From positions 62,001-112,295 of the forward strand of contig QPGO01000216.1 of NCBI GenBank assembly GCA_008632985.1: a stretch of 50,295 bases of DNA, in the 5' to 3' direction. The stretch is from Psammoneis japonica (taxonomy: Eukaryota). The translations under genes and the position numbers were made by a program. The stretch's first letter is position 1. The number at the start of each line of letters is the position of its first letter. This document shows, one piece after another, positions 1 to 25,577 of the stretch. A model generated the notes under the pieces. The model had not been told where the DNA came from, did no database searches, and saw nothing but the letters and a program-made list of their open reading frames with translations.

Positions 1-3000
1 CACACCGCAGTGTCTCCCGCCACACTTCTTGCTTACGGTGTTTGTTGGGAGCAAGAGGGCGACACTGCATGCGACTGCCACGTAAAGCTTGTTAAAAGAA
101 TTTTTGGCAATAAACCTGTGCTTGACAGGGTTGCTTTTTGTTCTGACCGTGGCCATTGGACACTTAAGTTGCTTGTCTGTCTGTTGGAGAACGGGGCTGA
201 AGTTCATGGTGCGGTGCGTCATCAACATTGGTGTCAGTTTACCTGCAATCAAGATTTGAAGACAGGTGACCCGCGGACATTGATTGACAAAGTTGGGCCA
301 TCGACTCTTTGCACTGGCACAGGGAAGGTTGCAGATCGGGACATTTGTCTGAATGCATGTCGAAATGGCACAAATGGCATAGCGCTTGCAATGTCGTCGA
401 TCATTGGCGGAGCGCATTGGGATTGTGTGCCGATTGAGCCAAAGCAAGTCTCTGCTCGAATTCCATGCGCTTGCAGTTCAGAGTGGCGCCAAGCTCTTAC
501 TTTTCATCCATTTCTCCTGGACAAGAACAGCAGCATTGATGATGAAACAATGTTGATGTTGGGCAAATTGGGCATCGATCATGTCACTGAGTGTCAAGGA
601 CATGTAGAATGGCGTGCTGCTCGGAAAAACGCAGTGACCTCATCAGGTGCCAACACACAAGTGTCAATGCAGCTTAAGATTGACAAAGAAAGAGAGCAGC
701 GACGACCGCATTGGGTTGTCATTGAAGAGCATCTTAGCACTTCGTCGGGCATCGTGGGAGATGAGTCAAACAATGAGGCAAGCAGAGTCTCGCAAGCTGA
801 TGCTGTGGGAGTGGAAGATGGTCATGTCAACCAAACTGCTGATGGCTCTGAGAACAATGTGGGAGAACAAGTGGGCCTGGAGCACCATTTGGCCGAGATC
901 GAAAAAGGACTAGATTCTGACATGGACATGGCTGACTTCCAAAAGGACTTAGATTCTGACATGGATGACGATGAACGACTCTTAGCCATTGAAAGCCGAG
1001 TGGATGAAGCAAAAGAGAAGAGAAGGGAGCAGAAAGAGAAAGCAAAGGAGCTGCTGAGTGACGCAGCTGACACGACCGCAAGAAACAATGAGCTGCGTGT
1101 CAAACTCACAGCAGATTTGAAAGCGGGCTTACACAAAAATTTGCTCAAGGACATCACAAAGCAGATGGGATGGAAAGTTCTAAAGACAAGTGGTGGAAAC
1201 TTGAAGAATGCCATTAAATGGCTAGAGGCTTCACTGGCCTCTTGTCCCTTCATTGTGCTCAGCAAACCTCAGCTGCAAGCGAAGTGTCGTGGGTGCATTA
1301 ACAGCACGGCACCGTCTAGTGTCAACACGGTCCCTCAGCTGGTGGCTGTTTTAAGTGGCAAAACTTCTGCACCCGTCGCCTCAAAAGACACTGTGGATCC
1401 AACCACGCCTCTTGAAGCTGCCATTCACACCAACTTTCTTCCTCCGCTTAAAGGCGAAGCAGCAGAATTGTGTAAGACAGGTCATCAGATGGAGCCCAAG
1501 TATGGAGAAGATCTTCTCACCGTTACAAAAGATGGTTTGTCGCTGGAGAATGGTTCTATTTTGTCGGTGGACTGTCTCTTTAGAGCTGGATTGCTGCAAA
1601 AAGAAGGAAGACGACATCAGAAGGATTCTCCAGATTTCATTGCTGTCGCATCCCTTGATGGCGAGCGAATCATCGTGGTTGCGGAAATGAAGGCACGATG
1701 CAAATCGTCAACTGCTGCAAAGGAAAGGAAGCGACTCTCAGAAGTCGGCAACTTCTCCATCATTGATTGCAACTCTCCCAAACTGGGCAAGTGCACATTA
1801 AAGCGATCAGAGGCCATCCAGGTTAGTGTCATTCCATGCAATCAAAAGTTTTTTGTACGGACAATGCTCACAAATGCTTTTCCTCGACACACCATCGCAG
1901 TGCGCCCATCATGCTAGCACTGTCGGAGTCAACTATGTCATGCTTGCCACAGGGGACCGCCTGGGTTTAACTGGCACAGTGGTGATCAGGCACAACAATG
2001 AATTTCTAGACAACTGCCAAAAATGTGTTGACGACATGTGTGAATCATCGTTGAAGTGGGCGTGCGATGATGACGTCGACATTCCCGTTGACGAGATAAA
2101 GGTGGCAGCAAAGAAAGCAAGAGTAAAGTTGGACTGTGAGACATTTGTGAAATCATTTTACTTTTGGAAAGAAATGACAAAGGCAAAGAACTTACCATTG
2201 CCACCGTGCAATAGAATCATTCCCATGCAGGACGGGTGTTGGAACTTGACCAAGTGTGGATCAGACGTTAAAACGCAGCATTGCCAAGAACAAGCCGCTT
2301 GTGTTCCTGAGGATTCACCAGGTGCAAAGGCGTTTGACCGTGTGCAGATGACAGTGCTTTCCGACGTGCAAAAGGGTGCTCAGAATTTCTTCACAAACTC
2401 TGATCTGGAAAAATGCAAGAATCTTGACTCGTGTCGCGACTGCACCCGTCACACTTTGAGCTTCATGGAAGCTCTCATGCAAGCATCTTGGATGTTTGAG
2501 ATGCTTTCCAAAGGACAGCAAGGGGATGGGAACAGTGCAAGAGCACCTGCTGACAGGCCAATGGTGACTCCAGCCAGGCCTTCAGAAGCAAGACGGTGGC
2601 TGAGAGGCTCGATTGAGCAAGAGGATACCGCCACAATTGCAAAGGAGTCCAGCAAGTCCCCCAAACGCGGCATTTTACCCGCTCTGACAAATCAACCAAA
2701 CACTCTTGAAAAAGCACATCCCCACAAGCGCTTCAAGCATTGTAAAGGCATGCCATTGCCTGGAGCATGCCCTGACACAGGGAACGATGCTGGATCCGGA
2801 GGCTTGGGTCATTGCATTCTTTGCAAGAGAAAGACCCACTTTTTTTGCTCTGACTGCAGGAATTGGTTTTGCCATGACAAGTCACGTCCTGACGACACCA
2901 GAGCTCCATATTTTCGAGACGCTGCAACACATCAAAACGGAAATAGTCAAATCACTGGCAAGCACACGTGCTTTGTGCAGTGCCATCCGACGACATTGTC

Positions 3001-3031
3001 CAACTTGGAAAAAAGACATGCACCAGAATGA
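1..3031 (+). pseudogene. piggyBac-like DDD transposase with inserted YqaJ-like PD-(D/E)xK nuclease domain; 5'-truncated by the window; exons <1-1821 and 1901-3031
   Basis: piggyBac-type motifs: SDRG(H<Y)W..L...L...G..V.G.VR (D at 145), WNLTKCGSD (2240-2266, compare YNxxKGGVD), and C-terminal CxxC..CxxC..C..CxxxH. Between them are YqaJ motifs Q..EW..AR...TSS, G...E, SPD, EMK and Q. Frame is open but has only ~5 Tyr in ~983 codons, so it is decayed. Confidence 0.7.
1822..1900 (+). other. 79-nt phase-0 spliceosomal intron
   Basis: CAG|GTTAGT donor, CTCAC branch-like site at 1867-1871, CGCAG acceptor. Removal joins ORFs 10..1917 and 1826..3031 in frame (EAIQ|CAHHASTVG), completing the nuclease Q-motif. 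Confidence 0.8.
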
Positions 3032-3700
3032 GCCATTGCACCATTCACACCCCATTGTTCTCGGCACTCACCTCAGTCAATCTTTCAACACGAAAGAGGC
3101 GGCATGGACACCGGTGCGAGTGGTGCGGAGGTGAAAATACACACTCCGTAGTGTCGTTCCTGAACATCCTTTGTATCCTGCCGTTGTCAACAAAACCATT
3201 CGTACCCCATCATTGTCAACAATGTCAAGTGCACTGCGTCATTCGAGACATAAAAGGCGATTGTCAGACGGTGGGTGATGTTGGGGGAAAGAGGCATTTG
3301 GCACAAGGAAACAACATTCATCAACTATGGCAATAACAAGCTGCGATTTGCAAGTCGGTTTTCGCCATTTTTTGTTCTCAGCATGCACCTTGTTCATTCT
3401 TTCAAAACACACCCTTGTTGACCATGCAAAGACTTTTACAAAACGTCCCTGCATGTCTCTGGGCATGGCTTGGTTGACAAGAAGGGCAACCAAGAGGTAC
3501 AGCAGCAAGAGTGATGTGGAGGTGTTGCAAACAAAAAAAGTGAAAAAAAAGCTGTGTAAAACACCCGACAATGTCCTGCCGTTAAAACGGGATAAAGACA
3601 TTTCCCTCCAGCTTGTCGGACGCGACACATCATACGAACACTTTTCGTGGAGGCGAGCGAGATCGAAAATCGAAAAATGCTCATGTCATGAGGATAAAAT

Positions 3701-3722
3701 CGTCTTACATAAAGACGGTTAG
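3701..3722 (+). other. Possible right terminus of the piggyBac-like element
   Basis: Small hairpin CGTCTT-ACATA-AAGACG, then GG|TTAG (near the GG|TTAA end pattern); composition changes just downstream. The partner end is outside the window. Confidence 0.25.
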
Positions 3723-3746
3723 AAAAAAACTCTGTGACAGATTGAT

Positions 3747-4520
3747 GTGATTATACAGCACCCACTTCACACTGGCAAAAGACAATCTCACAACACCCGT
3801 GCGGTTGCATTGTACAATGTACGAGGCAAGACATTAAAATTTATATCATGTCGACACACGAGATGTGCCAAAGATCTAAAAAAAAAAAGAAGAAAAGAAA
3901 AATGGACATTTATCCACTTAGTGCACGAAACCAGTGCCTTCGGAATGACAAACAACACCGGCACGTCAAAAAGAAACGTCCAAATAACGATTAAAATCCA
4001 ACTGATAGATGGTTGAAGTACAAAAAATCCATAATGGAATTCATAACCATCCCAGGATTATCCAAGACGAAATGGTTAGAAAACATTCTTGACCATCGTT
4101 AATTACTTACGATACGTGGAAGTGCAGCAGAGCAATGTGGCACATAAAGTAAGCCAGCCAGAACTACACGAAATCCACAAGTGCGTAAAAGTGAACATTA
4201 AGTACTGGGCATAATGCTATGTACAATCGATATCATGAAAGACACTGCAGGACAATTAGTCCTAGAGTGTTCATATCAACAAAGAACGTCAATGAGAATA
4301 CTCGACGTAATACTATATGTATAGACATATTAAGTGAGAAACAAACGATGTCACTCTCAGAAGACATTCGGAAATTGGAACGGCCCTATTATAGCTATAT
4401 GGCCTATATAAAACAACAACAGTCATTACTAATGGCACAATACAGTGACCGTGGAGACATTATTAACACTGTCAATGTCCGTCGAATAACCCATTTAACA
4501 AATGACTCTAATGTGCAATT
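3747..4520 (+). pseudogene. Heavily eroded AT-rich relic, possibly gypsy RNase H/integrase
   Basis: Faint peptide resemblance only (YNVRGKTLKFISCRH; H...HP). Followed by a purine tract and a TG-starting LTR-like repeat. Confidence 0.3.
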
Positions 4521-4531
4521 AGGGAGGCGAA

Positions 4532-4898
4532 TGCAGTATGCGACTGTTATGTGCATATTTATGATTTTATATTATTTATATGTCAATCGTACCACAGTCG
4601 TGGATACGTACAAAGGACAGAACGATCACACAGAGTTGATCGGATGTCGAGGATTGCAAATACGATCGATTGACGATGTTGACATCTTACGTGTCAACAG
4701 CAATCGTATCCGGACAATCTGTTGTCACGAATATATTCTCCGAAAGGCCTTTTGTCTGTAGAAGCAGTGCAGAAGCTTTGGGCCATTGAGAACTCGTTCG
4801 GAGAAACCAAAAATCACAGAGTAAAATTCAATCTTATAATTTCCACTTTTCGCACACTATTCTACTTTCGTTTACACTCGTTCTTCGAGCATAGTGCA
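4532..4898 (+). mobile_element. LTR, family L (probably gypsy 3' LTR), with PPT-like AGGGAGGCGAA at 4521-4531
   Basis: Starts TGCAGTATGC and ends GCATAGTGCA (terminal inverted repeat). The same 3' end recurs at 5087, 16245 and 25577. Confidence 0.65.
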
Positions 4899-5087
4899 GG
4901 ACAATCTGTTGTCCCAAACATGTTCTCTGAAATGCCTTTTGTCTGTAGAAGCAGTGCAGAAGCTTCAGGCCATTGAGAACTCGTTCGGAGAAACCAAAAA
5001 TCACAGAGTGTAAAATTTAATCTCACAATTTTCACTTTTCATGCTTGATTCTACTTTCGTTTACACTCATTCTTTGAGCACAGTGCA
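4899..5087 (+). repeat. Tandem duplication of the 3' half of LTR-L (copy of 4712-4898)
   Basis: Both units run GGACAATCTGTTGTC...GAGCAYAGTGCA. Confidence 0.85.
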
Positions 5088-5226
5088 CGTGACGGGAGAT
5101 CCATTGCACGGAGAGAGTCGGCGATAACTTGATGGACACGCTCAACGAAAGCGCCAGCTTGAGGATTCTTGATTGTTGCAGGCTTCGGCTTGACTCCACA
5201 ACTGCAGAGAAGATCCGTAAACTCAG
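5088..5226 (-). pseudogene. Gypsy integrase core fragment (likely the continuation of element G1)
   Basis: EFTDLLCSCGVKPKPATIKNPQAGAFVERVHQVIADSLRAM. Confidence 0.8.
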
Positions 5227-5467
5227 GATGGGTTCCAGTCCCAGGTGGGACTTTTTGTGACATTTGCCCAGCAGAATTCTACGTGCAAGCTCTGCAGTTC
5301 ACACTCTGGTCAATGGATGCATTTGTCTTCGACATAAAATAAACGGCCAAGTTTGCAGCACATGTGTCTCTGCACGCACTCAAAGTTTTGGATGATGCGC
5401 CTGCCCTGCACCATTCTTGAGACACTCGAGAATGGCGTAGAAGGAAAAAATGTTAAAAGTTGTTGAC
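5227..5467 (+). mobile_element. Truncated, mutated copy of MITE-like element X
   Basis: Aligns with 46489-46729 and starts at the same terminal inverted repeat. Interrupts gypsy integrase sequence. Confidence 0.7.
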
Positions 5468-5479
5468 ATCCACGGACCG

Positions 5480-5758
5480 TGACAGGATTTGAACAGGATT
5501 CAGGTGCGCACGAAATGTCGCGCGCCATTTTAGTTTACCGCGCACAGTTTTGTGTGCTCTTTAGTTCCGCGTGCACGCACGTGATGCAGTTTGCTTTCGA
5601 GCCACACGGCTCACAAGAACAATGACAGCAGCCCAATTGTACCAACTTACATGTCTTTTGGCTCCTGCAACAGTCTCTGAGCGGAGACTCATCTGCCACT
5701 TAGACAGCAGCAAGGAGTCATTGTTTGAATTCTTGCCATTTGCCTTCAATTTCTGTCA
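5480..5758 (+). repeat. 5' LTR of copy A
   Basis: TGACAGG...TTCTGTCA; direct repeat of 12262-12540. Confidence 0.95.
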
Positions 5759-5775
5759 GATTGACAGTCTTGCGC
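5759..5775 (+). promoter_or_regulatory. Primer binding site (putative tRNA-Asn half-molecule); also at 17690, 32659 and 45473(-)
   Basis: GATT(A/G)ACAGTCTTGC directly after the 5' LTR. Its reverse complement GCAAGACTGTTAATC is an anticodon arm with GTT. Confidence 0.65.
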
Positions 5776-6694
5776 ATCTGCCCATTGAGCAACCGCCATC
5801 ATCGTCGTTGATTTACCGACGATGCTATTTCAATTCTACGTGGACCTCCGTGCATGTTCTGCATGTACATCGGCAAGTCCACACGCATTCAATGCCAGGC
5901 ATCGGCAGGAATTTAACGTCACCGTCAAGTCTCCTTGCCGCTGGACATCTGGATTGATCACACTGCCTTTTGTCGCTGAAGACATGCATTCAACGGTTAC
6001 ATCCAAGTCTGTCCTTGATCCTCATCCCTTGACACACCCATTCAACGGTTAACGGTCAAGAACCCCACACATTCAAAGATCTACGTCGCTGAAGACATGT
6101 GCACACACATGTCTTCACGGCCAAGAACTTGAACCCACTCTTTGGACTGCGGCTTTGCCACCACTCTACAAGCACACCGAGTCTGTTGTACCTGATCTAC
6201 CCTGGACCACTGGTGCTCCACAGTTCCACTAGGTCCACGAGGATGACTGTGAGATCAAGCAGCTGTGATTACAGCCTACGTTGGGGCGAGGGTGTTTTCC
6301 CGCGTTTGTTCGTTCGTCCACAGCGCCTGACACCTGCGTCAACTGGCCAGCCTGATCGGGAAATCTAACCGACATAAAATAAGAACGAATTGGGGGTCTT
6401 GTCCACCTCTAGTCAGCTTACCTGCAGGGGTTTACAACCCGCTACTCCGCTCGTAAGCAACCCAAAGCGCCACTGGCTGTGGGTTCGGACGTGCCAGCAC
6501 AACTCTACGGACTGGATGGGAAGTTTAGCACTTGACAACGAACGGGATAGCACAACCCAGCGACTTCTGATTTTAAGATAGTTCAAGATTTCAAGTCAAG
6601 TCCATTTCAAGTCAAGTCCATTCCCACTCAAGTTTCAAGTCTACCTCCACGTCCTGACAAGAATCGCCTGCCCTGACACCATTTCTTGTCTGCC

Positions 6695-9600
6695 ATGGTT
6701 CTTACTCATCAGCAACAAACCGATGGTTTTGAGCACATTGTTGGAACCGTACTTGCCCAAGGTGCTGGAAGCCCTCTTTGTTTGGCTTTGACCCATGACA
6801 GCATGGACTTGTGCCAAGAACTGTTCACGTTCATACCTTCCCAAATCGACTCGCTTGAGTGCGATAACGGCACCAATGTGATCCCATTGCCCCAAGGTTA
6901 TAAGAACATGTTAGCAGCTCTAGTTAGTCTGTACATTGTCAAAGCACACAAAGGCCTTGATGTTGCCAATGACTCCTCATTGTTCATGCATGATGAGTTT
7001 CTTGCTTGCCGCCTCAGCCCCGACTGCATGTCTTCTGTGTCCGTCGGCAGCTCACCTCTTGCACCTCCGCATGTCACCAACCCGACCAAGGCACGCGACC
7101 CAGTGCGAGACTTCAAGCGAGGCATCAAGCGTGACCCCACTGCTTTCACGGCTCTCAAATCCGACAAGCAGTGGCACACTTGGCACACCTCACTTGTGGC
7201 ACAAGCCCATGCCCAAGACGTCGAGTGCATTCTAGACTCGTCGTACAAACCGACCAGCCCCGAAGACAAACTGCTCTTTGCTGAACAGCAAAAGTGCATG
7301 TTCGCCGTCTTCGAATGCATCCTTCTCACCGACAAGGGCAAAGCTCTCATTCGCGAAAATGTGGGGTCTTCTGACACCCAGACCGTCTGCCACGCCTTGT
7401 CCGAGTGTGCGCTCGCCTCCACCCGCGCATCTATCGAGTCCTCCACCTTGCTCACGCACCTCACCACCGCACGCCTTGGTGATGGCACTTGGAAAGGTCC
7501 GACCCACGGGTTCATCCTTCATTGGCAGGATCAGTTGCGCAAGTGCGAGGCACTCATCCCGGCCAGTGACCACTTCTCTGAAGGACAGAAGCGCGTCATG
7601 CTCGAGAATGCCGTACATCCTGTCGAGGAACTCCGCGCCGTCAAGAACCAAGCTGATCAACATCGCACGCAGAGTGGCAAGAGCCTCACATGCGATCAAT
7701 GTTGTGGCTTGCTCCTCTCCGCGGCGGCTCAACACGACAGCACGTTTCAACCCAAGACGACACCTCGAGCTCCCCGCCGCGCCACACACGCACACGACAT
7801 CTGCTCCGAGGAACCATCCGATGATGTGTTCTATGACATCGACAGCGACATTGACGTCCTTCAGGCTAACGCTGCCTACACCCGCGGTCCCAGCCTCACC
7901 GGCGACCAATGGAAACGTCTCCCTCCCAACCACCAACGGATTTGGGATTCATTGCCCAATTCCTCCAAGGCGATCATCCTTGAGCATTCTCGTCCACCTC
8001 CCTGCAACCCATGAGCCGGCAACTGCCATGAGTCCATTGCGGTCAACCTTCACGACCAATGACTTGGGAGTGACGGTGATGTCAACTTGTCCGCCACAAC
8101 TCCTGCTGACTCTGGTGATCCCACTCCAAATGTGAGTGCCACTTCAGACAATCCCATTCTGGTGCAACGCCTGTTGTCTCCTAACCAAGCCCCCAACGCC
8201 AGTCGACCGGGCCCATCCGCCGCTCCCTCTACCTCGCCTGCTCCTCCAGATGACATGGAACTTAACGGCTGCACTTGCCGCCGCGTCAACAACCACAATG
8301 TCATTTGCTCTGCCTCCGCTCATCGCTCTACACGCACTGGTGCTCTAGTCGATCGTGGAGCCAATGGCGGCATTGCTGGCGATGACGTTCACGTCATTGC
8401 ACACACCTCTCACCAAGTCGACGTTCAGGGCATTGACGACCATCAATTGGTGGACATCCCCATTGTCACCGCTGGTGCTGTCATTGAGACACAGTGTGGC
8501 CCCGTCATCACCATCCTCCATCAGTGCGCACACATGGGAAAAGGCAAGACCATTCATTCCTGTGGCCAGCTCGAATGGTACAAACATGATGTCAACGTTT
8601 GCTCTGTCAAGGTGCCCAACGGCTTGCAGCGTGTCGCCACCCCTGATGGCTGTGTCATCCCAATTGACATCAAGGGTGGCCTGCCTTATGTTGCCATGCG
8701 ACCCCACACTGATGACGAATGGGACACCCTGCCACATGTCATCCTTGCCGGTGATGACACATGGGACCCTTCCGTCCTTGATCACTCTATCACTGACGAC
8801 GACCAGTGGTGCGACGCGATCTCTGACCTGCAGGACGATCCCACTGCCAACCTGTTTGACGAGTGCGGCAACTGCCATCACCGTGTCATTGTCAACAAGG
8901 CCATCATGTCTGCCTCCTTGTCTGCCGATCACGCGTCCGCCCTCGATGACCACCTCATTCCGAATGAAGACGTGTTCTACGAGTGTCATCTACACGCGAT
9001 TGACCCCAAGGACGATGACGTTCCACCTCCAGAGCGCAATGTGCAGCCCAAGGAACCCCCCTGCGAGTCTCTTCGGCCCTGCTTTGGTTTCCAACCTGCC
9101 GACACGGTTCGTTGCACTTTCGACTGCACCACGCAATGCGCCCGGTACGCACCTTAAGAAGGCCTGCAAATCGCCCAACCCCGCCCTTAATGTGCACCGC
9201 CGCAACAAGCCTGTCGCCACTGACACCGTTTGTGCCGACACCCCGGCCATCGACTCTGGTTGCACCAGCACCCAACTGTTTGTTGGTGCCAAGTCTACCG
9301 TCACTGACGTCTGCGGCACCAAAACCGACAAAGAGTTTGTCAACACACTCGAGGATCAGATCTGTGAGCATGGTGCTCCATCCAAACTCATCAGCAACCG
9401 TGCTCAAGTTGAGATCAGCAACAAGGTGCTCGAGATTCTACAAGCCCTCTTCATCTCCAGCTGGCAAAGCGAGCCTCACCAGCAACACCAAAACTTTGCC
9501 GAACGCCAACACCAGACCGTGAAGCGCATGGCGAACACCATCATGGACCGTTTCGGTTCGCCTGCCCACACATGGCTGCTGGCACTCATGTGCGTTTGCT

Positions 9601-12261
9601 TCGTGCTCAACCACACAGCGTCCCCACGTCTCCACTGGCGCATGCCCCTCGAGACTCTTGCTGGCTCCACCCCGGACATCAGCCCATTGCTCCGCTTTCA
9701 CTGGTGGGAACCTGTGTGCTTCCACCTCGATGACTCCGATTGGCCGTCCGAATCCCGTGAGTTGCGTGGATGCTTTGTTGGCATTGCTGAGCACGTTGGC
9801 CACCAGATGTCCTTTGAGATTCTTTCTGATGACACTCAGAAGATCCTCTGCCGGTCCAATGTACGATCCGCTACCACCGATCCTTCCGTTCAAAACCTGC
9901 GTCTTGATCCTCCTGATGGGGAGCCACCTGAACCCATCATCAGATCTCGCCATGACAACAACCCCGTTGATTCACCTGATGGGGAGATCAGGACACCCAA
10001 GATGCCAGTTTTCAATCCGCAAGACATCATTGGACGCACCTTCCTCATGCAGCCACAAGAGGATGGACAATGCCACAGAGCTCGCATCGTCAAGGCAGTC
10101 GAAGATCACAACTGGAAAGTGAACGGCAACCCCGAGCTCACTAAGTTCATCTGCTCTGTCAACAACGACGAATACGAGGAAGTCCTGGCCTGCAACGACA
10201 TCATGAATCACATCGAGCAAGAAGACGAAGACACCACTGTTTGGAAATTTCAACGCATTGTGTCACACGAAGGACCTCTGAAGCCTCATGACCCAACCTG
10301 GAAGGGCTCAAGCTACAACATCATGCTTGAATGGGAAAGTGGGGAGATCACGTCCGAGCCTCTTGCCATCATCGCCAAGGATTGCCCTGTCACCTGCGCC
10401 ATGTGTGCACGAGAGAACGGACTTCTCGACACTGATGGCTGGAAGTGGTTCCGCACCATCGCGAGGCGCCAGAAGAAGCCATTCCGCATGGCCAACCAAG
10501 CCAAGCTTCGCTCCTTCTGCACTGCACCTTGCTAAAAGTGCGGACACAAAGTTCCCCGGAACTACAAACACGCCATGTCCCTAGACGAACGCAACGGCAA
10601 CCGCAAATGGGGAGACGCAACCAATCTTGAGATGGACCAACTCAATGAATACGAAGTCTTTCATGACTGCGGGCCCTCCGAGTTTTCCACTCCTCCTGCG
10701 GGACACAAGAAGATCCGAGTGCACCTGGTGTACGACGTGAAACACGACGGCCGCCACAAGGCACGACTTGTAGCCGATGGACACCTCACGGACGCACCCA
10801 TTGACAGTGTCCACTCTGGAGCATTCTCCCTTCGTGGCCTTCGGCTGATGATTTTCCTGGCCGAACTCAATGAGTTGGAGACATGGGCCACCGACATTGG
10901 CAATGCCTGCCTTGAAGCCACCACCAAGGAGAAGCTGTACATTGTAGCTGGACCTGAATTTGGCAAACTCGAAGGCCACATTCTTGTCATCTACAAGGCC
11001 CTGCATGGACTGCGCAGCTCTGGTCTCCGCTGGCATGAGCGCTTCGCCGACTGCCTGCGAGCTGAAGGTTTCTTCCCCTGCCGCGCCGAACCCAACATTT
11101 GGATGCGCAGGAACGGCGACCACTGCGAATTTGTTGCCGTTTATGTGGATGACCTCGCCATTGCCATGAAGGATCCTCAATCTTTCGTCGACACCCTCAC
11201 GGAAAAGCACAAGCTCAAGCTCAAGGGCACAGGACCGATTGAGTTCCATCCAGGCTGCGACTTCTCCCGGGATCCTGACGGCACCTTGTGTCTGTCTCCA
11301 TGCAAGTACATCAAATGCATGGTTGACAGCTGCACACAACTGTTTGGGGAGAAACCTGCCACCAATGTCCTGTCCCCTCTGGAAAAGGGTGACCACCCCA
11401 AACTGGACACTTCTGAACTGCTGGAGCCCGATGGCATTCAACAGTTCCAGTCTCTTGTTGGTTCCCTCCAATGGGCAGCGTCTCTTGGTCGAATTGACAT
11501 CACCACGGCTGTCATGTCACTCTCTGGCTTCCGAGCTGTGCCCCGTCAAGGTCACTTGGATCATGCCAAACGCATCTGTGGGCACCTCTCCAAGATGCGA
11601 CACGGCGCTCTCCGCGTTCACATGGAAGAACCCAACTGTTCAGATCTCCCTGCACCGGCCTGTGAATGGATGCATTCCGTGTGTGGCGAAGCAGAGGAGA
11701 TGATCCCTGAGGACGCTCCACTGCCCCTTGGCAAGTTTGTCACTGCCACCCACTACGTCGATGCAAACTTGCATCATTGCATGCTCACCGGACGCTCTGT
11801 CATGGGAATGCTCCACTTCCTCAACAAATTCCCGGCTGATTGGTTCTCCAAGAAGCAAGCCACCGTGGAGACTGCGACCTGCGGGTCTGAATTTGTTGCC
11901 ACAAGGACTTGTGTCGAGCAGATTGTCGACCTGCGCATCACCCTGCGTTACCTCGGCGTCCCGATCCGTGACATTAGTTGCGTGTTCGGTGACAACAAGT
12001 CGGTTGTGGACAGTGCCACCATCCCGCACTCCAAGTTACACAAGCGACACACCGCTCTGTCGTTCCACCATGTGCGTGAAGCGATTGCCTCTGGTTGCCT
12101 TGAGTTCCACTTCATCGAAGGCTCCCGCAACCCTGCTGACATTCTCAGCAAGCATTGGGGTTGCTCCCAAATCTGGGACCTTCTCCGTCCCCTCATGTTT
12201 TGGAACTTCATTCCATCCGAAGTCGAGTCTGTTTCTGTGACTCCTCAAGCAAACTGGGGAG
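6695..12261 (+). pseudogene. gag-pol of copy A (stops, deletions, frameshift)
   Basis: PR DRGANGG; IN ATDT / S(N<D)RAQVE / EPHQQHQNFAE; RT KARLVADG, YVDD; RH YVDANL, GSEF, GDNKSV, NPADILSK. Confidence 0.92.
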
Positions 12262-12540
12262 TGACAGGATTTGAACAGGATTCAGGTGCGCGCGAAATGT
12301 CTCTCGCTATTTTAGTTTGCCGCACACAGTTTTGTGTGCTCTTTAGTTCCGCGCGTACGCATGCGATGTAGTTTGCTTTTGAGCCACATGGCTCACAAGA
12401 ACAACAACAGCAGCCCGATCATGCCAACTTACACGTCTTTTGGCTCCTGCAACAGTCTCTGAACGGAGACTCATCTGCCATTTAGACAGCAGCAAGGAGT
12501 TGTTGTTTGAATTCTTGCCATTTGCCTTCAATTTCTGTCA
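12262..12540 (+). repeat. 3' LTR of copy A
   Basis: Follows PPT AAACTGGGGAG; 279 bp. Confidence 0.95.
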
Positions 12541-15500
12541 GACCAAAAAGATCGACCTGCATTGCTTGCCAGGGTTGGCAAATGGTGTCCGGAAGAGGCA
12601 ATTCGCCACAATTCACGGTCGTGCGCTTGGACTTGGGACATTCTTGGCATTTGCGGACATGCACATGGACTTTCGCTGGAGAGCTGCATCTTTTTTCTGA
12701 TGCTCGGCAATTGTGTCAAAAGTAACGGGGAATGCCGAAGGATCGATTTCCAACAAAGTCATTTCCTCGTAGTCGCTCTGATCAACTTGGATGACAGGGC
12801 AGCGACTTGAAAAATCAGCCACAACATTTTGAGGGCCTGGAAGGCAGTCGAAAGAGCAACCACATTCTTTGAGGAGCAAGCGCCAGTGTTTGACGCGCTC
12901 GGACTTGAATGTTTCGAAAGTGAGGTTCTTGTGATCGCTGAAAAAATAGCATCGATGGCCAAAAAGGATGTTTTTGAAATTTTCAACCGTTTCGACGAGC
13001 AACAGGAGTTCTTTTTCCATCGTTGTGTAATTCTTTTGTGCTGGAGATAATTTTTGGCTGTAGAATGCGATGGGCCATTTGCCATCCTCAAAAACTTGAG
13101 CAATCACAGCACCAAGCTGGCAATCACTCGCATCCAGATAAATCTTGAAAGGTTTGGAAAAGTTGAGGAATCGGAGGAGGATTTCGCGTGCCACAATTTT
13201 TTGCATTTGATTGAAGGCTTGAGCATGGACATCGGTCCACTTGAACTTGACTTTGTCCAAGGACAGCACAGTTAAGGGCATGAGAGTGTGACTGCGTCGG
13301 TGCCACAATTTCTTGCAATGATTCATGAACCCGATGAAACCACGTAGTTGGCGATGGTTTTGAGGGTGAGCAAAGCAAAGTGAGGGTAGAATCTTTTTGT
13401 TTTGAGGGCGAATGCCTTTTGCAGTGACAGCACAGCCCAAGTGGTCCACTGTTTGGGCAGCGACACAGGTTTGTTTGACGTGCACATGGAGATTGCTCTT
13501 GAGCAGTTGCTGGAGGACCAGTTCGAGCCACTGAAGGTGTTGATTGAAGTCGCGCTTTGTAAAAAGAATGATGTTGTCAATGTGGACCATGGCATCTTCC
13601 ATGTCACATAGAAGATCGGCCACACAAGCTTGAAAAATATCGCTTGCTGGCTTAATTCCCTGCAGAAGCCGGTTGTGGCAGCATTTGGCCCAAGGCAGGA
13701 TGACACCACATAATTTTTTCAACTCGTCATCCACTGCGAAGTGACAATAGCCGCGATTTAAGTCTGAGCAAGTTTCGCAAGTGAAACCATCAACTTTCCA
13801 AATGAAATCATTGACAATGGGCAATGGGTGTGGATGTTGCTCAAGACATTTGTTGAGCTTGCGCAGGTCGGAGAGAAAATGGATGCCACCATCTTTTTTT
13901 GGTTGGAAAAGGCAAGGAGCACCCCACGATGAATGTAGACGTCGAGTGACGACGTTGATTTTCTTGAGGTCATCCACCTCTTTGCAAGCCAAAGGACACA
14001 AGGATTGTGGGATGGTGCAGGCTTTTGTGCAATGCGGCCGCGAACCGGGTTTTAAGGTCAAATGAACCAGTTTTCCAGGCACGGCTCCAAGCGCACCATC
14101 AAATGATCCAGGACAGCAACCAAATGGGTCAATCAGCTGATGCTGTTGGTCGGAAGTGAGATGGTTGCATCGTAAAACCATGTCTCAGAAATTGTGCTTG
14201 TCGCAGGCATTGCTTGTCATGCCGCGAACTTGGCGGTTGACAGCGTTTTGGAAAAACTTGGGTAATTCAGCATCACCAGGATGAATCGAATTGACTTCAT
14301 CTTGGTCAAAAGAACCCTTGGATTGCATTGTAAGGGTGACATCATCCCACGTGATTGTTCGATGTTTAAAATCAAAAACGAGTCCCATTTCTGTGGCCGT
14401 TTTTCGTCCGATGATGATGTCATGTTTCCCGACGGCTTTGTCTTCCACACAAGCATCGACGGAAACCTTCTTTGATGGTGTGAAGTCTGGGAACTTCAAG
14501 GTGAGCATTGCGATTTCATGAAGGTTAACGGCACTGTAACGTCCTTTGACAGGAACGTCACACTCACGGATTTTGTGAGGAATTCCGCAAAGAGCCAATC
14601 ACTTCACAAAGTTGCGATTCGTGCTGGTGTCCAGCAAAGCAATGCGAAATTTGTGCATTCCAGAATGAGCATTTATCATCTGGACTCGCGCTTCCATGGC
14701 AAGGTCATCCTCAACCTCCGATTCTGGAAAATCGTCTTGGAGGGAGGCAACATCTTCGAAAATGTCATTGATGTCGTCTGACATGATGCCATCAGCGTCG
14801 TTTGGATTGGAGCGTGCAGCTCTGGAGTCCACATTGTTGTTTTCAACATTTCATGTGCGACTCTGTGTTGGACATCGATGCCCTGGCTTGCTTTGGGAGT
14901 TGTTTTGACGGTTTGGCGCATTGCGATTTGCACGATTCCCCTCACAGTTTTCATGCTCACAACGAATGATGTTGCACTCCTGACCGTTCGGGTGTACAAT
15001 GCCATGGATTGGACATGCTTGTCCTTGGTTGTCGTGATTTCTGTTCCTCGCATTGCAATTCTGACTCTGATTCTGGCCATGACGCGTGTTTTGATCATCA
15101 TCACATCGACTCTGGCTGTTGTCGTGTCGGCTGTTGGCAGATCATTCACATCCACGTCTTTCCATGTGACAGAGACTTTCACAGCATTGAGCTTGATCAT
15201 TCAAGCCAAATTGCAAAGACGGGCTTTAGTTTGTGCTTCAGCCCAAGCTTTGGGTCCACATTTTTGTAAATCATGGATGATTCGGCTTCCGTGAATGATG
15301 GAACCCTTTCGTCTTGACATTGTGATGGAGAAGGCATGATGCCAATCAACTTGTTAAAGCGACGGATTTCATTAACAAATGAGTGGAATGTCTGGTTTCT
15401 GGGCTTCTTAAGACTTTGAAGCCATTCCTTGGTGTCAAGGGCAATTTCTCTGTCCATGTGCTGAAGGAGAAATTCTTCGCGACAAGCATCGAATGTGTCT

Positions 15501-17530: not shown

Positions 17531-20500
17531 GAGCACTTGGCTCACAAGAATTTCAACAGCAGCCCGATTATGCCGACTCACACATCTTTCGGCTCCTGCA
17601 ACGGTCTCTGAGCAGAGACTCATCTGCTGTTTAGACAGCAGCAAGGAGTCATTGTTTGAATTCTTGCCATTTGCCTTCAATTTCTGTCAGATTAACAGTC
17701 TTGCTCATTGTCAACCCATTGAGCAACCGCCATCATCGTCGTTGATTTACCGACGATGCCACCTCAATTCTGCGTGGACCTCCGTGTGTGTTCTACGTGT
17801 ACATCGGCAAGTCCACACGCATTCAATGCCAGGCATCAGCAGGAATTTAACGTCACCGTCAAGTCTCCCCACCGCTGGATGTCTGGATTGATTGTGCTGC
17901 CTTTTGTCGCTGAAGACATGCATTCAACGGTTGTGTCCAAGTCCATCCTTGATCCTCATCCCTTGATGTGCCCATTCAACGGTTAACAGTCAAGAACCCT
18001 TTACATTCAAAGTTCTTCGTAGCTGAAGACACACACACACATGTCATCACGGCCAAGAACTTGAACCCACTCTTTGGACCACGGCTTTGCTGCCACTCTA
18101 CAAGCACACCGAGTCCATTGTACCTGATCTACCCCAGACTGCTGGTGCTCCACAGTTCTGCTAGGTCCACGAGGACGACTGTGAGAGCAAGCAGCCGTGA
18201 TTGCAGCCTGCGTTGGGGCGAGGGTGTTTTCCCGCGTTTGTTCGTTCATCCACAGCGCCTGGCGCCTACGTCAACTGGCCAGCCTGATTGGGAAATCCAA
18301 CCGACATAAAATAAGAACGGTTCGGGGGTCTTGTCCACCTCTAGTCAGCTTGCCTGCAGGGGTTTGCAACCCGCTACTCCGCTCGTAAGCAACCCAAAGC
18401 ACCACTGGCTGCGGGTTCGGACGTGCCGGCACAACTCTGCCGACCGGACAGGAAGTTTAGCACTTAACAACGAACGGGACAGCACACCCCAGCGACTTCT
18501 GATTTTAAGATAGTTCAAGACATCAAGTCAAGTCCATTCCCACTCAAGTTTCAAGTCTACCTCCACATCCTAACAAGAATCGCTTGTCCTGGCACTGCTT
18601 TTGTCTGCCATGGTTCTCACCCGTCAGCAACAAACCGATGGTTTTGAGCACGTTGTTGGAACCGTGCTTGCCCAGGGTGCTGGAAGCCCTCTTCGTTTGG
18701 CTTTGACCCACGACGGCACGGACTCGTGCCAAGAACTGTTCACGTTCATACGTTCCCAAATCGACTCGCTTGAGTGCGACAACGGCACTAATGTGATCCC
18801 ATTGCCCCAAGGTTATAAGAACATGTTAGCAGCTCTAGTTAGTCTGCACATTGTCAAAGCACACAAGGGCCTTGATGTCACCAATGACTTTTCGTTGTTC
18901 GCGCATGATGAGTTCCTTGCCTGCCGCCTCAGTCCCGACTGCATGTCTTCTGTGTCCGTCGGCAGCTCACCTCTTGCACCTCTGCACGTCACCAACCCGA
19001 CCAAGGCACGCGACCCAGTGCAAGACTTCAAGCAAGGCATCAAGCGTGACCCCACTGCTTTCACGGCTCTCAAATCCGACAAGCAGTGGCACACTTGGCA
19101 CACCTCACTTGTGGCACAAGCCCGTGCCCAAGACGTCGAGTGCATTCTAGACTCGTTGTACAAACCGACCAGCCCCAAAGACAAACTGCTCTTTGCTGAA
19201 CAGCAAAAGCACTTGTTCGCCATCTTCGAATGCATCCTTCTCACCGACAAGGGCAAAGCTCTCATTCGCGAAAATGTGGGGTCTTCTGACGCCCAGACAG
19301 TCTACCGCGCCTTGTCCGAGCATGCCCTTGCCTCCACCCATGCATCCATCGAGTCCTCCACCTTGCTCACGTACCTCACCACCACATGCCTTGGTGATGG
19401 TACTTGGAAAGGTCCGACCCATGGGTTCATCCTTCATTGGCAGGATCAGCTGCACAAGTGCGAGGCACTCATCCCGGCCAGTGACCACTTCTCTGAAGGA
19501 CAGAAGCGCGTCATGCTGGAGAATGCCATGCATCCTGTCAAGGAACTCTGCGCCATCAAGAACCAAGCTGATCAACATCGCACGCAGAGTGGCAAGAGCC
19601 TCACATGCCATCAATGTTGTGGCTTGCTCCTCTCCGCGGCGGCTCAATGCGACAGCATGCTTCAACCCAAGACGACACCTCGAGCTCCCCACCGCGCCAT
19701 GTGCGCACATGACGTCTGCTCCGAGGAACCATCCGATGATGTGTTCTATGACATCGACAGCAACATTGACGTCCTTCAGGCTGATGCTGCCTACACCCGT
19801 GGTCCCAGCCTCACCGGCGACCAATGGAAACGTCTCCCTCCCGACCACCAACGGATTTGGGATTCATTGCCCAATTCCTCCAAGGCGATCATCCTTGAGC
19901 ATTCTCGTCCACCTCCTTGCAACCCACGAGCCGGCAACTGGCATGAGTCCGTTGTGGTCACCCTTCACGACCAACAACTTGGGAGTGACGGTGATGTCAA
20001 CTTGTCCGCCATGACTCTTGCTGACTCTGGTGATCCTGCTCCGGATGTGGATGCCCCTTCAGGCAATCCCATTCTGGCGCATCTCACCAAGCACAAGCCA
20101 CTGCCACCCGGTGATCTGCAATGCCTATTGTCTCCTGCCCAAGCCCCCAAAGTTAGTCGATCTGGCCCATCCGCCGCTCCCTCTACCTCGCCTGCTCCTC
20201 CAGATGACACAGAACTTAACGGCCGCACTTGCCGCCGCGTTGGTGACCACACTGTCATTTACTCTGCCTCCTCTCATCGCTCCACACGCACTGGTGCTCT
20301 AGTCGATTGTGGAGCCAACGGCGGCATTGCTGGCGACGACGTTCGCATCATTGCATGCACCTCTTGCCAAGTCAATGTTCAGGGCATTGACTGCCATCAA
20401 TTGGTGGACATCCCCATTGTCACCGCTGGTGCCGTCATTGAGACACAGCATGGTCTCATCATCGCCATCCTCCATCAGTGCGCACACACGGGAAAGGGCA

Positions 20501-23500
20501 AGACCATTCATTCCTGTGGCCAGCTCGAATGGTGCAAACACGATGTCAATGATCGCTCTGTCAAGGTGCCCAATGGCTTGCAGCGTATCGCCACCCCTGA
20601 TGCGGCCCTACACTGACGACGAATGGGACACCTGCCACATGTCATCCTTGCCAGTGATGACACATGGGACCCTTCCGTCCTCGATCACTCTGTCACTGAC
20701 GACGACCAGTGGTGCGACACGATCTCTGACCTGCAGGACGATCCCACTGCCAACCCATTTGACGAGTGCGGCAACTGCCGTCACCGTGTCGATGTCAACA
20801 AGGCCATCATGTCCGCCTCCTTGTCTGCCGACCACGCGTCCGCCCTCGATGACCACCTCATCCCAAATGAAGATGTGTTCTACGAGCATCATCTACACGC
20901 GATTGACCCCAAGGACAACGACGTTCCACCTCCGGAGCGCCATGTGCAGCCCAAGGACCCCCCTGCGAGTCTCTTTGGCCCCACTTTGGTTTCCAACCCA
21001 CCAACACGGTTCGTCGTGCTTTCGACTGCACCACGCAATGCGCCCGCATGCCCACCGGTGCGCACCTTAAGAAGGCCTACAAATCACCCAACCCCGCCCT
21101 TGATGTGCACCGCCGCAACGAGCCCATCGCCGCTGACACCGTTTGTGCTGACACCCCGGCCATCGACTCTGGTTGCACCAGCGCCCAATTGTTTGTTGGT
21201 GCCGAGTCTGCCATCACTGACGTCTACGGCACCAAAACCGACAAAGAGTTTGTCAACACACTCGAGGATCAGATCCGTGAGCACGGTGCTCCTTCCAAAC
21301 TCATCAGCGACCGTGCCCAAGTTGAGATCAGCAACAAGGTGCTCGGGATTCTACAAGCCCTCTTCATCTCCAGCTAGCAAAACAAGCCTCACCAGCAACA
21401 CCAAAACTTTGCCGAACGCCGACACCAGACCGTGAAGCGCATGGCAAACACCATCATGGACCGTTTCGGTTCGCCTGCCCACACATGGCTGCTGGCACTC
21501 ATGTGCGTTTGCTTCACACTCAACCACACAGCGTCCCCACGTCTCCACTGGCGCATGCCCCTTGAGACTCTCACTGGCTCCACCCCGGACATCAGCCCAT
21601 TGCTTTGCTTTCACTGGTGGGAACCCGTGTGCTTCCACCTCGATGACTCCGATTGGCCGTCCGAATCCCGTGAGTTGCGTGGACGCTTTGTTGGCATTGC
21701 TGAACACGTCGGCCACCAGATGACCTTTAAGATTCTTTCTGATGACACTCAGAAGATCCTCTGCCGGTCTAATGTACGATCCGCTACCACCGATCCTTCC
21801 ATTCAAAACCTGTGTCTTGATCCTCCTGATGGGGAGCCACCTGAACCCATCATCAAATCTCGCCATGACGACAACCCCGTCGATTCACCTGATGGGGAGA
21901 TCAGGACACCCAAGATGCCAGTTTTCGATCCGCAAGACATCATTGGACGCACCTTCCTCATGCAGCCACAAGAGGATGGACAACACCACAGAGCTCGCAT
22001 CGTCAAGGCCGTCGAAGATCACGACTGGAAAGTGAACAGCAACCCCGAGCTCACTAAGTTCGTCTGCTCTGTCAACAACGACGAATACGAGGAAGTCCTG
22101 GACTACAACGACATCATGAATCACATTGAGCAAGAAGACGAAGACACTGCTGTTTGGAAATTTCGACGCATTGTGTCACACGAAGGACCTCTGAAGCCTC
22201 ATGACCCAACCTGGAAAGGCTCAAGCTACAACATCATGCTTGAATGGGAAAGTGGGGAGATCACGTCCGGGCCTCTTTCCATCATCGCCAAGGACAACCC
22301 TGTCACCTGCGCCATCTATGCACGAGAGGACGGACTTCTCGACACTGATGGCTGGAAGCGGTTCCACACCATCGCAAGGCGCCAGAAGAAGCTGTTCCGC
22401 ATGGCCAACCAAGCCAAGCTTCGCTCCTTCTGCACTGCACCTCGCTACAAGTGCGGATACAAAGTTCCCCGGAACTACAAACACGCCATGTCCCTAGACG
22501 AACGCAACGGCAACCGCAAATGGGGAGACGCAACCAATCTCGAGATGGACCAACTCGATGAATACGAAGTCTTTCATGACTGTGGGCCCTCCGAGTCTTC
22601 CACTCCTCTTGCGGGACACAAGAAGATCCGAGTGCACCTGGTGTACGACGTGAAACACGACGGCCGCCACAAGGCACGACTCGTAGCCGATGGACACCTC
22701 ACGGACGTACCCATCGACAGTGTCTGCTCTGGAGTAGTCTCCCTTTGTGGCCTTTGGCTGATGATTTTCCTGGCCGAACTCAACGAGTTGGAGACATGGG
22801 CCACCGACATTGGCAATGCCCACCTTGAAGCCACCACCAAGGAGAAGCTGTACATTGTAGCTGGACCCGAATTTGGCAAACTCGAAGGCCACATTCTTGT
22901 CATCTACAAGGCCCTGTATGGACTGCACAGCTCCGGCCTCCACTGGCCCGAGCGCTTCGCCGACTGCCTGCGAGCTGAAGGTTTCTTCCCCTGCCGCGCC
23001 GAACCCGACATTTGGATGCACAGGAATGGCGACCACTACGAACATGTTGCCGTTTATGTGGATGACCTCGCCATTGCCATGAAGGATCCTCAATCTTTCG
23101 TCGACACCCTCATGGAAAAGTGCAAGTTCAAGCTCAAAGGTGCGGGACCGATTGAGTTCCATCTAGGCTGCGACTTCTCCCGGGATCCTGACGGCACCTT
23201 GTGTCTGTCTCCGCGCAAGTACATTGAACGCATGGTCGACAGCTGCACACGACTGTTTGGGAAGAAACCTGCCACCAACATCCTGTCCCCTCTGAAAAAG
23301 GGTGACCACCCCGAACTTGACACTTCCGAACTGCTGGAGCACAATGGCATTCAACAGTTCCAGTCTCTTGTCGGTTCCCTCCAATGGGCAGTGTCTCTTG
23401 GTCGAATTGACATCACCACGGCCGTCATGTCACTCTCTGGCTTCCAAGCTGCACCCCGTCAAGGTCACTTGGATCGTGCCAAACGCGTCTGTGGGCACCT

Positions 23501-24454
23501 CTCCAAGATGCGACACGGCGCTCTCCGTGTTCGCACGGAAGAACCCAACTGTTCAGATCTCCCTGCACCGGCCTGTGAATGGATGCATTCCGTGTATGGC
23601 GAAGCAGAGGAGATGATCCCTGAGGATGCTCCACCGCCCCTTGGCAAGTTTGTCACTGCCACCCACTATGTCGATGCAAACCTTGTGTCATTGCATGCTC
23701 ACCGGACGCTCTGTCATGGGAATGCTCCACTTCCTCAACAAATTCCCGGCTGATTGGTTCTCTAAGAAGCAAGCCACAGTGGAGACTGTGACCTGCGGGT
23801 CTGAATTTGTTGCCGCAAGGACTTGTGTCGAGCAGATTATCGACCTGCGCATTACCCTGCATTACTTCGGCGTCCCGATCCGTGACATTAGTTATGTGTT
23901 CAGTGACAACAAGTCGGTTGTGGACAGTGCCACCATCCCGCACTCCAAGTTACACAAGCGACACACCGCTCCATCGTTCCACCATGTGCATGAAGCGATT
24001 GCCTCTGGTTGCCTTGAGTTCCACTTCATCGAAGGCTCCCGCAACCCTGCTGACATTCTCAGCAAGCATTGGGGTTGCTCCCAAATCTGGGACCTTCTCC
24101 ATCCCCTCATGTTTTGGAACTTCATTCCATCTGAAGTCGAATCTGTTTCTGTGACTCCTCAAGCAAACTGGGGAGTGACAGGATTTGAACAGGATTCAGG
24201 TGCGCGCAAAATTTCGCGCGCTGTTTTAGTTTGCTGCACACAGTTTTGTGTGCTCTTTAGTTCCGCGCGTACGTGCACGATGTAGTTTGCTTTTGAGCCA
24301 CATGGCTCACAAGAACAACAACAGCAGCCCGATTGTACCAACTTACACGTCTTTCGGCTCCTGCAACGGTCTCTGAACGGAGACTCATCTGCCATTTAGA
24401 CAGCAGCAAGGAGTTGTTGTTTGAATTCTTGCCATTTGCCTTCAATTTCTGTCA
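17531..24454 (+). mobile_element. Copia family 1 copy B (5' LTR truncated ~17531-17689; gag-pol 18610-24175; 3' LTR 24176-24454)
   Basis: Colinear with copy A, same motifs, with its own deletion at ~20600 and nonsense/frameshift lesions. Confidence 0.93.
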
Positions 24455-24981
24455 GACCAAAAAGATCGACCTGCATTGCTTGCCAGGGTTGGCAAATGGT
24501 GTCCGGAAGAGGCAATTCGCCACAATTCACGGTCGTGCGCTTGGACTTGGGACATTCTTGGCATTTGCAGACATGCGCATGGACTTTCGCTGGAGAGCTG
24601 CATCTTTTTTCTGATGCTCGGCAATTGTGTCAAAAGTAACGGGGAATGCCGAAGGATCGATTTCCAACAAAGTCATTTCCTCGTAGTCGCTCTGATCAAC
24701 TTGGACGACAGGGCAGCGACTTGAAAAATCAGCCACAACATTTTGAGGGCCTGGAAGGTAGTCGAAAGAGCAACCACATTCTTTGAGGAGCAAGTGCCAG
24801 TGTTTGACGCACTCGGACTTGAATGTTTCGAAAGTGAGGTTCTTGTGATCGCTGAAAAAATAGCATCGATGGCCAAAAAGGATGTTTTTGAAATTTTCAA
24901 CCGTTTCGACGAGCGACAGGAGTTCTTTTTCCATCGTTGTGTAATTCTTTTGTGCCGGAGATAATTTTTGGCTGTAGAATG
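24455..24981 (-). repeat. Duplicate of gypsy G1 segment 12541-13067
   Basis: 527 bp, 8 substitutions by eye. Same LTR/flank junction and same internal deletion. Confidence 0.95.
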
Positions 24982-25296
24982 TCGACCTGCACATCACCCT
25001 GCATTACCTCGGCGTCCCGATCCGTGACATCAGTTACATGTTCGGTGACAACAAGTTGGTTGTGGACAGTGCCACAATCCCGCACTCCAAGTTACACAAG
25101 CGACACACCGCTCTATCGTTCCATCATGTGCGTGAGGCGATTGCCTCTGGTTACCTTGAGTTCCACTTCATCGAAGGCTCCCGCAACCCTGCTGACATTC
25201 TTAGCAAGCATTGGGGTCACTCCCAAAGCTGGGACCTTCTCCGTCCCCTCATGTTTTGGAACTTCATTCCATCTGAAGTCGAATCTGTTTCTGTGA
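24980..25296 (+). pseudogene. Copia family 1 RNase H C-terminal fragment
   Basis: FGDNKLVVDSATIPHSKLHKRH...NPADILSKHWG. Confidence 0.9.
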
Positions 25297-25577
25297 CAGA
25301 TCAATCACACAGAATTGATCGGATGTCAAAAAATGCAAATACAATCGTACGATGATGTTGACATCTTATGTGTCAATGTCAATCGTATCCGGACAATCTG
25401 TTGTCACGATCTTATTCTCCGAAAGGCCTCTTGTCTGCAGGGACAGCACAAATGCTTTAGGCCATTGAGAACTTGTTCGGAGAAACCCAAAATGATTGCA
25501 CAGAAACAATTCTCATAATTTTCACTTTTCACACTTGATTCTGCTTTTGTTTGTGCTCGTTCTTCGAGCACAGTGCA
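25294..25577 (+). repeat. LTR-L fragment
   Basis: Aligns with ~4616-4898. Confidence 0.85.

Follow-up and report, generated by a model that had tools for sequence, protein, structure and literature searches.

Cut-and-paste transposases differ chiefly in the way in which they cut the second DNA strand. Tn5 and piggyBac keep a hairpin-forming insertion domain; in Tn7 the 3' strands are cut by TnsB, a DDE (Asp-Asp-Glu) enzyme, and the 5' strands by TnsA, a PD-(D/E)XK enzyme that is a restriction-enzyme-like endonuclease and not one of lambda-exonuclease type. Nucleases of that second type do keep company with eukaryotic DNA transposons, as an earlier annotation made from the letters of the DNA (hereafter the sequence-only reading) had correctly stated: according to PMC4122938, ISL2EU elements carry YqaJ as a separate open reading frame (ORF), and according to PMC9587614, KolobokE combines a DDD/E transposase and a PD-(D/E)XK, lambda-exonuclease-like nuclease in one protein. 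Here we describe a gene at the start of a 50,295-nucleotide (nt) stretch of the Psammoneis japonica genome (GenBank assembly GCA_008632985.1, contig QPGO01000216.1, positions 62,001 to 112,295 of the forward strand; 'the window'). Positions 1-3031 of the window are the 3' three quarters of a transposase gene, and we consider it likely that its product is an IS4/piggyBac-like DDD transposase in which a YqaJ/lambda-exonuclease-type nuclease is nested before the third catalytic Asp, and that it belongs to an undescribed family of eukaryotic transposons.

The gene lies on the + strand and is already in frame where the window begins, its 5' part being upstream; the missing N-terminus, as supplied by homologues, is ~290 amino acids (aa) long and includes a VSLDDDKK motif, and the whole protein comes to about 1270 aa. 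Frame 1 is open over 1-1821 and reopens at 1901 to run to a stop codon at 3029-3031, with a 79-nt intron (1822-1900; GT at 1822, AG at 1900) between the two, inside the nuclease domain; two predicted related proteins, P0007 and P0006, cross this junction without a gap, joining EALQ to xAHHAST. The middle part of the transposase core (1-558, delimited from homologues, the family alignment and hhalign comparison with IS4) contains the motif of the second catalytic Asp (D2), FCSDRGHW, at 136-159 with the Asp codon at 145-147, followed by G(T>A)VR(R>H)Q at 205-225, a beta-rich 'insertion-domain' motif, NACRNGTNGIALAMSS, at 352-399 and an acidic WD at 415-420. The nuclease begins at 559-735, a segment placed by hhalign, a PDB profile search and the family alignment, with the N-terminal helix motif QGHVEWRAARKNAVTSS at 595-645. 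A variable insert occupies 736-1401, acidic and of low complexity over ~760-1000, then with a conserved helical SAP/HeH-like segment marked by LKAGLHKNLLKDITKQMGW (1117-1173) and AIKWLEA (1210-1230). The exon 1 part of the nuclease core (1402-1821) has GHQMEP at 1480-1497 (GHQME 1480-1494), DSPDF at 1624-1638 (SPD 1627-1635), VVAEMKAR at 1675-1698 (EMK 1684-1692) and Q at 1819-1821, and the domain ends after the intron, at 1901-2065 (CAHHAST ... SLKWAC), as judged from related proteins and hhalign. The post-nuclease transposase part (2066-2800) includes LPLPPCNRIIP at 2192-2224 and the candidate motif of the third Asp (D3), WNLTKCGSD, at 2240-2266 (Asp codon 2264-2266), downstream of which come a helical stretch and an SPKR-containing linker; a C-terminal Cys-rich zinc finger (CxxC..CxxC..C...CxxxxH) and the stop codon complete the gene at 2801-3031.

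Re-reading these coordinates bears out the architecture on which the sequence-only reading had been built, namely a D2 and a D3 motif about 680 codons apart, an ordered set of YqaJ motifs between them, and the splitting of that set by an acidic insert and an intron. The two Asp codons are 680 codons apart once the intron is removed, every nuclease motif is in place in one frame broken by the intron, and the two halves of the nuclease are separated by ~278 codons (646-1479) that are acidic and in part SAP-like. Four close relatives (P0001-P0004) all diverge just past 'QLKV', at a point equivalent to ~1250-1300 of the window, in a manner resembling read-through of an intron; since the window frame is unbroken there, the window copy may have lost an intron at this site.

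The YqaJ/lambda-exonuclease domain is well supported by profile comparison. Against a 14-row reference alignment of lambda exonuclease, its relatives and PF09588-verified loci from Bacillota genomes, the nuclease region with its insert cut out aligned by hhalign at a probability of 95.7% (E 8.4e-9, 179 columns), and at 91.4% with the insert kept. In the insert-removed alignment the G..E, D, ExK and Q columns fall in register, preceded in order by an N-terminal W..R..TaS motif, and all of these are present in the window copy. Thirteen controls reached at most 0.6% (reversed template, 0.3%; ten column shuffles, no more than 0.4%; the two remaining stretches of the protein, 0.6% and 0.3%). Other searches gave fainter signals: the PHROG family 'RecE-like recombination exonuclease' (phrog_434) was matched by three of 36 members, each time over the same region (best E 1.6e-5), and was the only PHROG family matched by more than one; in a PDB profile search the only nucleases listed were four lambda-exonuclease sequences, at E 0.43 and for the N-terminal motif; and Pfam YqaJ (PF09588) was matched below threshold only, by P0082 (0.017) and the ORF of locus L006 (0.046). 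Lambda exonuclease as a single-sequence template gave a weak 16.8% in hhalign, and the ESM Atlas was uninformative for the nuclease half, its top named cluster being Herpes_UL24 (0.88). An Arg that is invariant in the family (33/33) pairs with the Arg of lambda exonuclease KLRLGVITAS, the residue that binds the 5' phosphate. As for the insert, Pfam Rho_N/SAP matches were seen in two relatives (P0051 at 27.7 bits, above the cut-off, and P0100 below it), and hhalign comparison with one SAP protein was not significant (0.9%).

For the transposase core, the family alignment minus the nuclease was compared with 27 IS4 (PF01609) proteins from bacterial genomes and aligned at 89.8% (E 1.8e-6, 131 columns), pairing DDDK with the first catalytic Asp (D1) and DRGY with D2; the controls, a reversed template and six shuffles, gave 0.1% or less. 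In a Pfam scan of ~147 proteins and ORFs of the family, seven matched DDE_Tnp_1, of which P0024 alone exceeded the cut-off (27.3 bits against 23), and a single one, P0028, matched DDE_Tnp_1_7 (E 0.005), at 16.6 bits against a cut-off of 22.4. Together these comparisons support a DDE core of the IS4/piggyBac clan as far as D1 and D2 are concerned.

The piggyBac flavour is less firm, and comes from the D3 motif, the Cys-rich finger, the ESM features and the one sub-threshold Pfam match. Our piggyBac reference was a single frame-broken ORF, L190, Pfam-verified (DDE_Tnp_1_7, 8e-15) and located on a contig from a giant-virus metagenome-assembled genome; three motif scans of viral contigs yielded one true piggyBac-like locus among 23, no PF13843 was found in 401 prokaryote genomes, and a search for relatives of the L190 protein returned only itself. 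At 1841-4029 of its contig, which was binned as giant virus, L190 encodes a piggyBac-like transposase in two frames with a C-terminal Cys-rich finger of its own. The family matched this protein at 64% (E 6.5e-5; reversed and ten shuffled templates at most 0.7%), the signal coming from the Cys-rich finger, which by itself scored 21.5 bits in hmmsearch; a looser alignment (mact 0.2) was collinear across D2, D3 and the finger, and the best local alignment of the post-nuclease region set P....WN..KGGSD exactly against P....YN..MGGVD. The N-terminal half of L190 as a template gave 0.1%. ESM features placed DDE_Tnp_1_7 in 28 of the 30 nearest clusters (top score 0.91), which we treat as a lead only. 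The piggyBac-like identity proposed by the sequence-only reading is upheld for a core of the IS4/piggyBac clan and for the finger, and fails for a DDE_Tnp_1_7 match above cut-off and, in the relatives with both ends, for a TTAA duplication; the family is best termed IS4/piggyBac-like, and not piggyBac proper.

The family is a sizeable one. When 1.84 billion representative proteins were searched with a profile, 662 matched at E<=1e-3, of which 315 reached <=1e-10 and 84 reached <=1e-30, and 21 of the 150 family matches listed were 1090-1382 aa long, within a range for family proteins of roughly 1100 to 1450 aa; word-based searches recovered nine relatives only, all shortened by introns or contig ends, and a search for longer homologues obtained none. 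None of the members scanned against Pfam has an explanatory family, and all ten that were checked by name are 'hypothetical protein'. Throughout, the order of conserved blocks is constant, running first from DDDK through DRGY..GT.KR and A(F/Y)RNGTG..SS to T..QG..W...R.FS.TSS, and thereafter from GH..E through DS.D, E.K.R, Q..HHA and WN..KGGSD to C..C..T..C..C..C....C....H. Across the 36 rows of a family alignment, the candidate DDE columns are kept in 31/31 (D1), 33/33 (D2) and 25/26 (D3) rows, and those of the nuclease in 33/33 (R), 27/27 (E), 28/28 (D), 28/28 (E), 25/27 (K) and 26/26 (Q); such near-invariance of the candidate catalytic columns argues that the motifs are not due to chance. 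Moreover, all motifs occur in the same order in uninterrupted ORFs on environmental DNA contigs, 1360 codons long in L001 and 1456 in L004, and the architecture is therefore not an artefact of gene models. Homologues lacking the fusion had been named beforehand as a finding that would count against the proposal; as judged from the alignment and from these single ORFs, the fusion of nuclease and transposase is conserved family-wide.

Relatives also show the ends expected of a mobile element. Terminal inverted repeats (TIRs) surround the ORF in three of them, L001 (18/18 nt), L006 (19 nt) and L004 (about 22 nt), beginning (C)ATATCC or GAGT..ATATCC, with L004 carrying ATATCC at its right end and ATAGCC at its left. 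A terminus of the ATATCC type lies 250-450 nt upstream of the ORF in five of six loci (L001, L002, L006, L007 and L008), and perfect palindromes of 18-28 nt sit just inside the ends, again in five of six. The 15-mer ATATCCATAGTGAGT is common to L002 and L007, two loci whose likeness otherwise amounts to only 66-74%, over short stretches of coding sequence; L003 copies L004 at 99.5% but has lost 565 nt internally; and the left end of L006 is not shared by L005. Between the transposase and the right TIR, L006 carries a second ORF (5196-6410) with two SAP domains (E 9.6e-10), which has no relation to the second ORF of L004.

Several observations weigh against the reading we favour. Of the 26 long members, 25 had no Pfam match at E<=0.01 and the other matched Rho_N; neither piece of the window gene had a real Pfam match at E<=1, and NCBIfam likewise gave no real match in the two pieces. 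PiggyBac is not listed at E<=10 in the PDB profile searches, the match to L190 drops to a non-significant 0.9% once the finger is removed, and the post-nuclease region alone reaches 0.1%. The termini of the relatives are not of the CCC..GGG type found in piggyBac, and no TTAA or other clear duplication flanks any of the three two-ended relatives, whose ends may be a few bases off as placed. The window contains one copy only and neither end of the element, and this copy departs from the family at four of 45 near-invariant columns. Finally, both the RNase-H fold and the position of the third catalytic residue are deduced from sequence comparison, and an acidic W-(D/E) column ahead of the nuclease, kept in 31 of 33 rows, is a possible alternative third residue.

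On this last column rests the most serious alternative, in which the nuclease is fused to the transposase and not nested within it: the DDE triad would be complete before the nuclease, with the W-(D/E) at 415-420 of the window, about 50 aa upstream of the nuclease, as third residue, and everything beyond would be a C-terminal addition. KolobokE, as described in PMC9587614, offers an existing example of such a downstream lambda-exonuclease-like fusion, and the post-nuclease D3 has no statistical support. Set against this, the column is a mixture of D and E, is absent in two of 33 rows and stands only ~8 residues past the ...SS strand, whereas in L190 the third Asp, in P....YN..MGGVD, comes 47 residues past the ...HT strand. 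The P....WN..KGGSD motif, for its part, is found after the nuclease only, with its Asp kept in 25 of 26 rows and its N and K in 23 of 23 each. We regard the appended arrangement as unlikely, and a third catalytic Asp behind the nuclease, placed there by the collinearity of motifs, as likely but unproven.

The state of the window copy raises a different alternative, that of a host gene domesticated from a transposase of this kind and now immobile in the P. japonica genome. The frame is intact, with at least one intron, and retains D2, D3 and all of the nuclease residues; three of the four substitutions at near-invariant columns (DRG(Y>H), G(T>A), R>H and Y>C) adjoin D2, so that the DDE activity of this copy is doubtful, and its intact frame may encode a transposase that is weakened or inactive. 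Neither TIR of the element turned up in the window, the terminal motif of the relatives has no match there, GGATAT is lacking from 3032-5480, and no second copy was found within the window. Copies elsewhere in the genome were compared in one public DNA run that contains the window sequence. In it, 348-2543, of the full-length form, is represented by a single contig with no differences and the lowest depth (36.8), a point in favour of a host gene; other contigs, 95-97% alike and at depths of 60-74, join 1-377 straight to 2514 or cover 2652-3476. These contigs represent copies of the element with a 2136-nt internal deletion, typical of DNA-transposon derivatives, and they speak against a domesticated gene, as do the position of the locus among long terminal repeat (LTR) retroelements and the TIRs that bound its relatives. 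Domestication thus seems to us quite improbable. Counts of synonymous and non-synonymous differences between near-identical copies (6/5, 4/4 and 0/0) are too small to read. The last reading, of chance motifs or of two genes fused by faulty annotation or assembly, could appeal to the blank Pfam and NCBIfam results for the two window pieces, and is scarcely credible, being ruled out in our view by the hhalign results for nuclease and DDE core with their clean controls, by the near-invariant catalytic columns and by the single ORFs on independent DNA contigs.

Downstream of the gene, 3032-3565 (+ strand) is the 3' non-coding part of the element, with repeats of TTGTCAAC / GTTGACAA at 3184, 3213, 3415-3426 and 3465-3480; likeness to the other copies extends at least to about 3498 and stops between there and about 3566, at an unrelated high-copy repeat. 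Of 36 listed differences between the window copy (70-3498) and the others, 35 are transitions, an excess that may reflect a deamination-type mutation process acting on repeats. The high-copy repeat covers ~3566-5400, has a related stretch at 25295-25577, includes direct repeats of ~187-189 nt at 4712-5087, and has a summed contig depth of thousands to tens of thousands in the DNA run. The window as a whole is rich in transposons: an LTR retrotransposon of ~7 kb, with LTRs of ~280 nt and a reverse transcriptase of Copia type (RVT_2, E 3e-23), is present in four copies that are 89-96% alike, at 5479-12542, 17534-24456, 32380-39170 (+) and 39232-45752 (-), two of them head to head, and Gypsy-type fragments (RT_RNaseH, Integrase_H2C2, RVT_1) lie at 12613-14184, 47857-48969 and 49327-50166, all on the - strand. 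Searches of the window for Rfam families, tRNAs and tandem arrays were all negative.

Taken together, these findings point to a likely architecture for such a protein and to a proposed mechanism. Its core is probably an RNase-H-like DDD domain (DDDK ... DRGY..GT.KR ... WN..KGGSD) with a piggyBac-like C-terminal Cys-rich finger for DNA binding, and a complete PD-(D/E)XK nuclease, itself interrupted by the acidic and SAP-like insert, probably occupies a loop that separates the beta-rich insertion domain from the helix bearing the third Asp. We infer what each active site does, and how the two share the work, as follows. The DDD site would nick the ends and transfer the 3' strands at the TIRs, the subterminal palindromes seen in relatives (18-28 nt) being probable binding sites for the protein. 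The built-in nuclease probably acts on 5'-phosphorylated ends, since it keeps an Arg aligned with that of lambda exonuclease, and might remove or resect the non-transferred 5' strand; such resection may replace the hairpin step, much as TnsA works beside TnsB in Tn7. Alternatively, the nuclease may serve to ready the ends, or the donor gap, for repair.

A broader proposal, possible in our estimation yet on balance doubtful, is that the family constitutes a new superfamily-level group of eukaryotic cut-and-paste elements, defined by two active sites in one nested fold, a DDD site and a lambda-exonuclease-type site in the place of the hairpin domain, by second-strand processing through a nuclease dependent on 5' ends in lieu of a hairpin, and by TTAA-free insertion with ATATCC termini and subterminal palindromes. 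If true, a complete phage-type exonuclease housed within the core of a transposase would solve the second-strand problem in a new way, in a single polypeptide, and would be a natural analogue of the TnsA/TnsB pair of Tn7. The family is large and present on many environmental eukaryotic contigs, and having no Pfam name, its members currently go unannotated; several look intact, such as the TIR-enclosed ORFs of 1360 and 1456 codons, and this opens the question to bench work.

In the full-text literature, with Repbase and Dfam lying outside the search, we found no piggyBac/IS4-like transposase with an internal YqaJ/lambda-exonuclease domain; the family may already be catalogued in one or other of these two databases. 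Tn7 serves by analogy, as a model of how the two active sites might share the work; there the activities belong to two proteins, which bear no sequence relation to the family. With piggyBac (DDE_Tnp_1_7) the family shares the order of DDD-type motifs (an xDDxK/xSxDE-like D1, DRxY/F..GT.+R and, for the candidate D3, aromatic-N..xGGxD), a segment rich in beta structure between D2 and D3, and a C-terminal Cys-rich finger. It differs in that D2 and D3, roughly 100 aa apart in piggyBac, are separated by about 620-720 aa with a whole nuclease inserted between them, and in that its ATATCC termini, its lack of TTAA duplication in the three two-ended relatives and its lack of a DDE_Tnp_1_7 match above cut-off contrast with the TTAA target-site duplication and CCC..GGG-type termini of piggyBac. 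With bacterial IS4 (DDE_Tnp_1) it shares the D1-D2 region, as the profile alignment and the one member past the Pfam cut-off indicate; unlike IS4, it shows no YREK-type third motif either before or after the nuclease, and it is eukaryotic, with introns, a C-terminal finger and a nuclease.

As in ISL2EU, a YqaJ-type exonuclease accompanies a DDE transposase, although in ISL2EU, according to PMC4122938, the exonuclease is a separate ORF and the transposase is PIF/Harbinger-like with a THAP domain. KolobokE is alike in joining a DDD/E transposase and a lambda-exonuclease-like nuclease in one protein, and different in that its nuclease is placed downstream from the transposase domain; the Kolobok signatures given in PMC9587614 (ADGxW / DGDSS, a CCHC finger after D1 and C/DxxH) are not conserved in the family alignment, which has no CCHC after D1 and no conserved Cys/His column between D2 and the nuclease. 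The sequence-only reading had spoken of an unusual two-nuclease transposase lineage, and both enzyme identities do have profile support; a 'two-nuclease transposase' as such is not new, however, given that the KolobokE fusion is already in print. Relative to KolobokE, what is new is the proposed nested position of the nuclease, together with the superfamily of the transposase that houses it.

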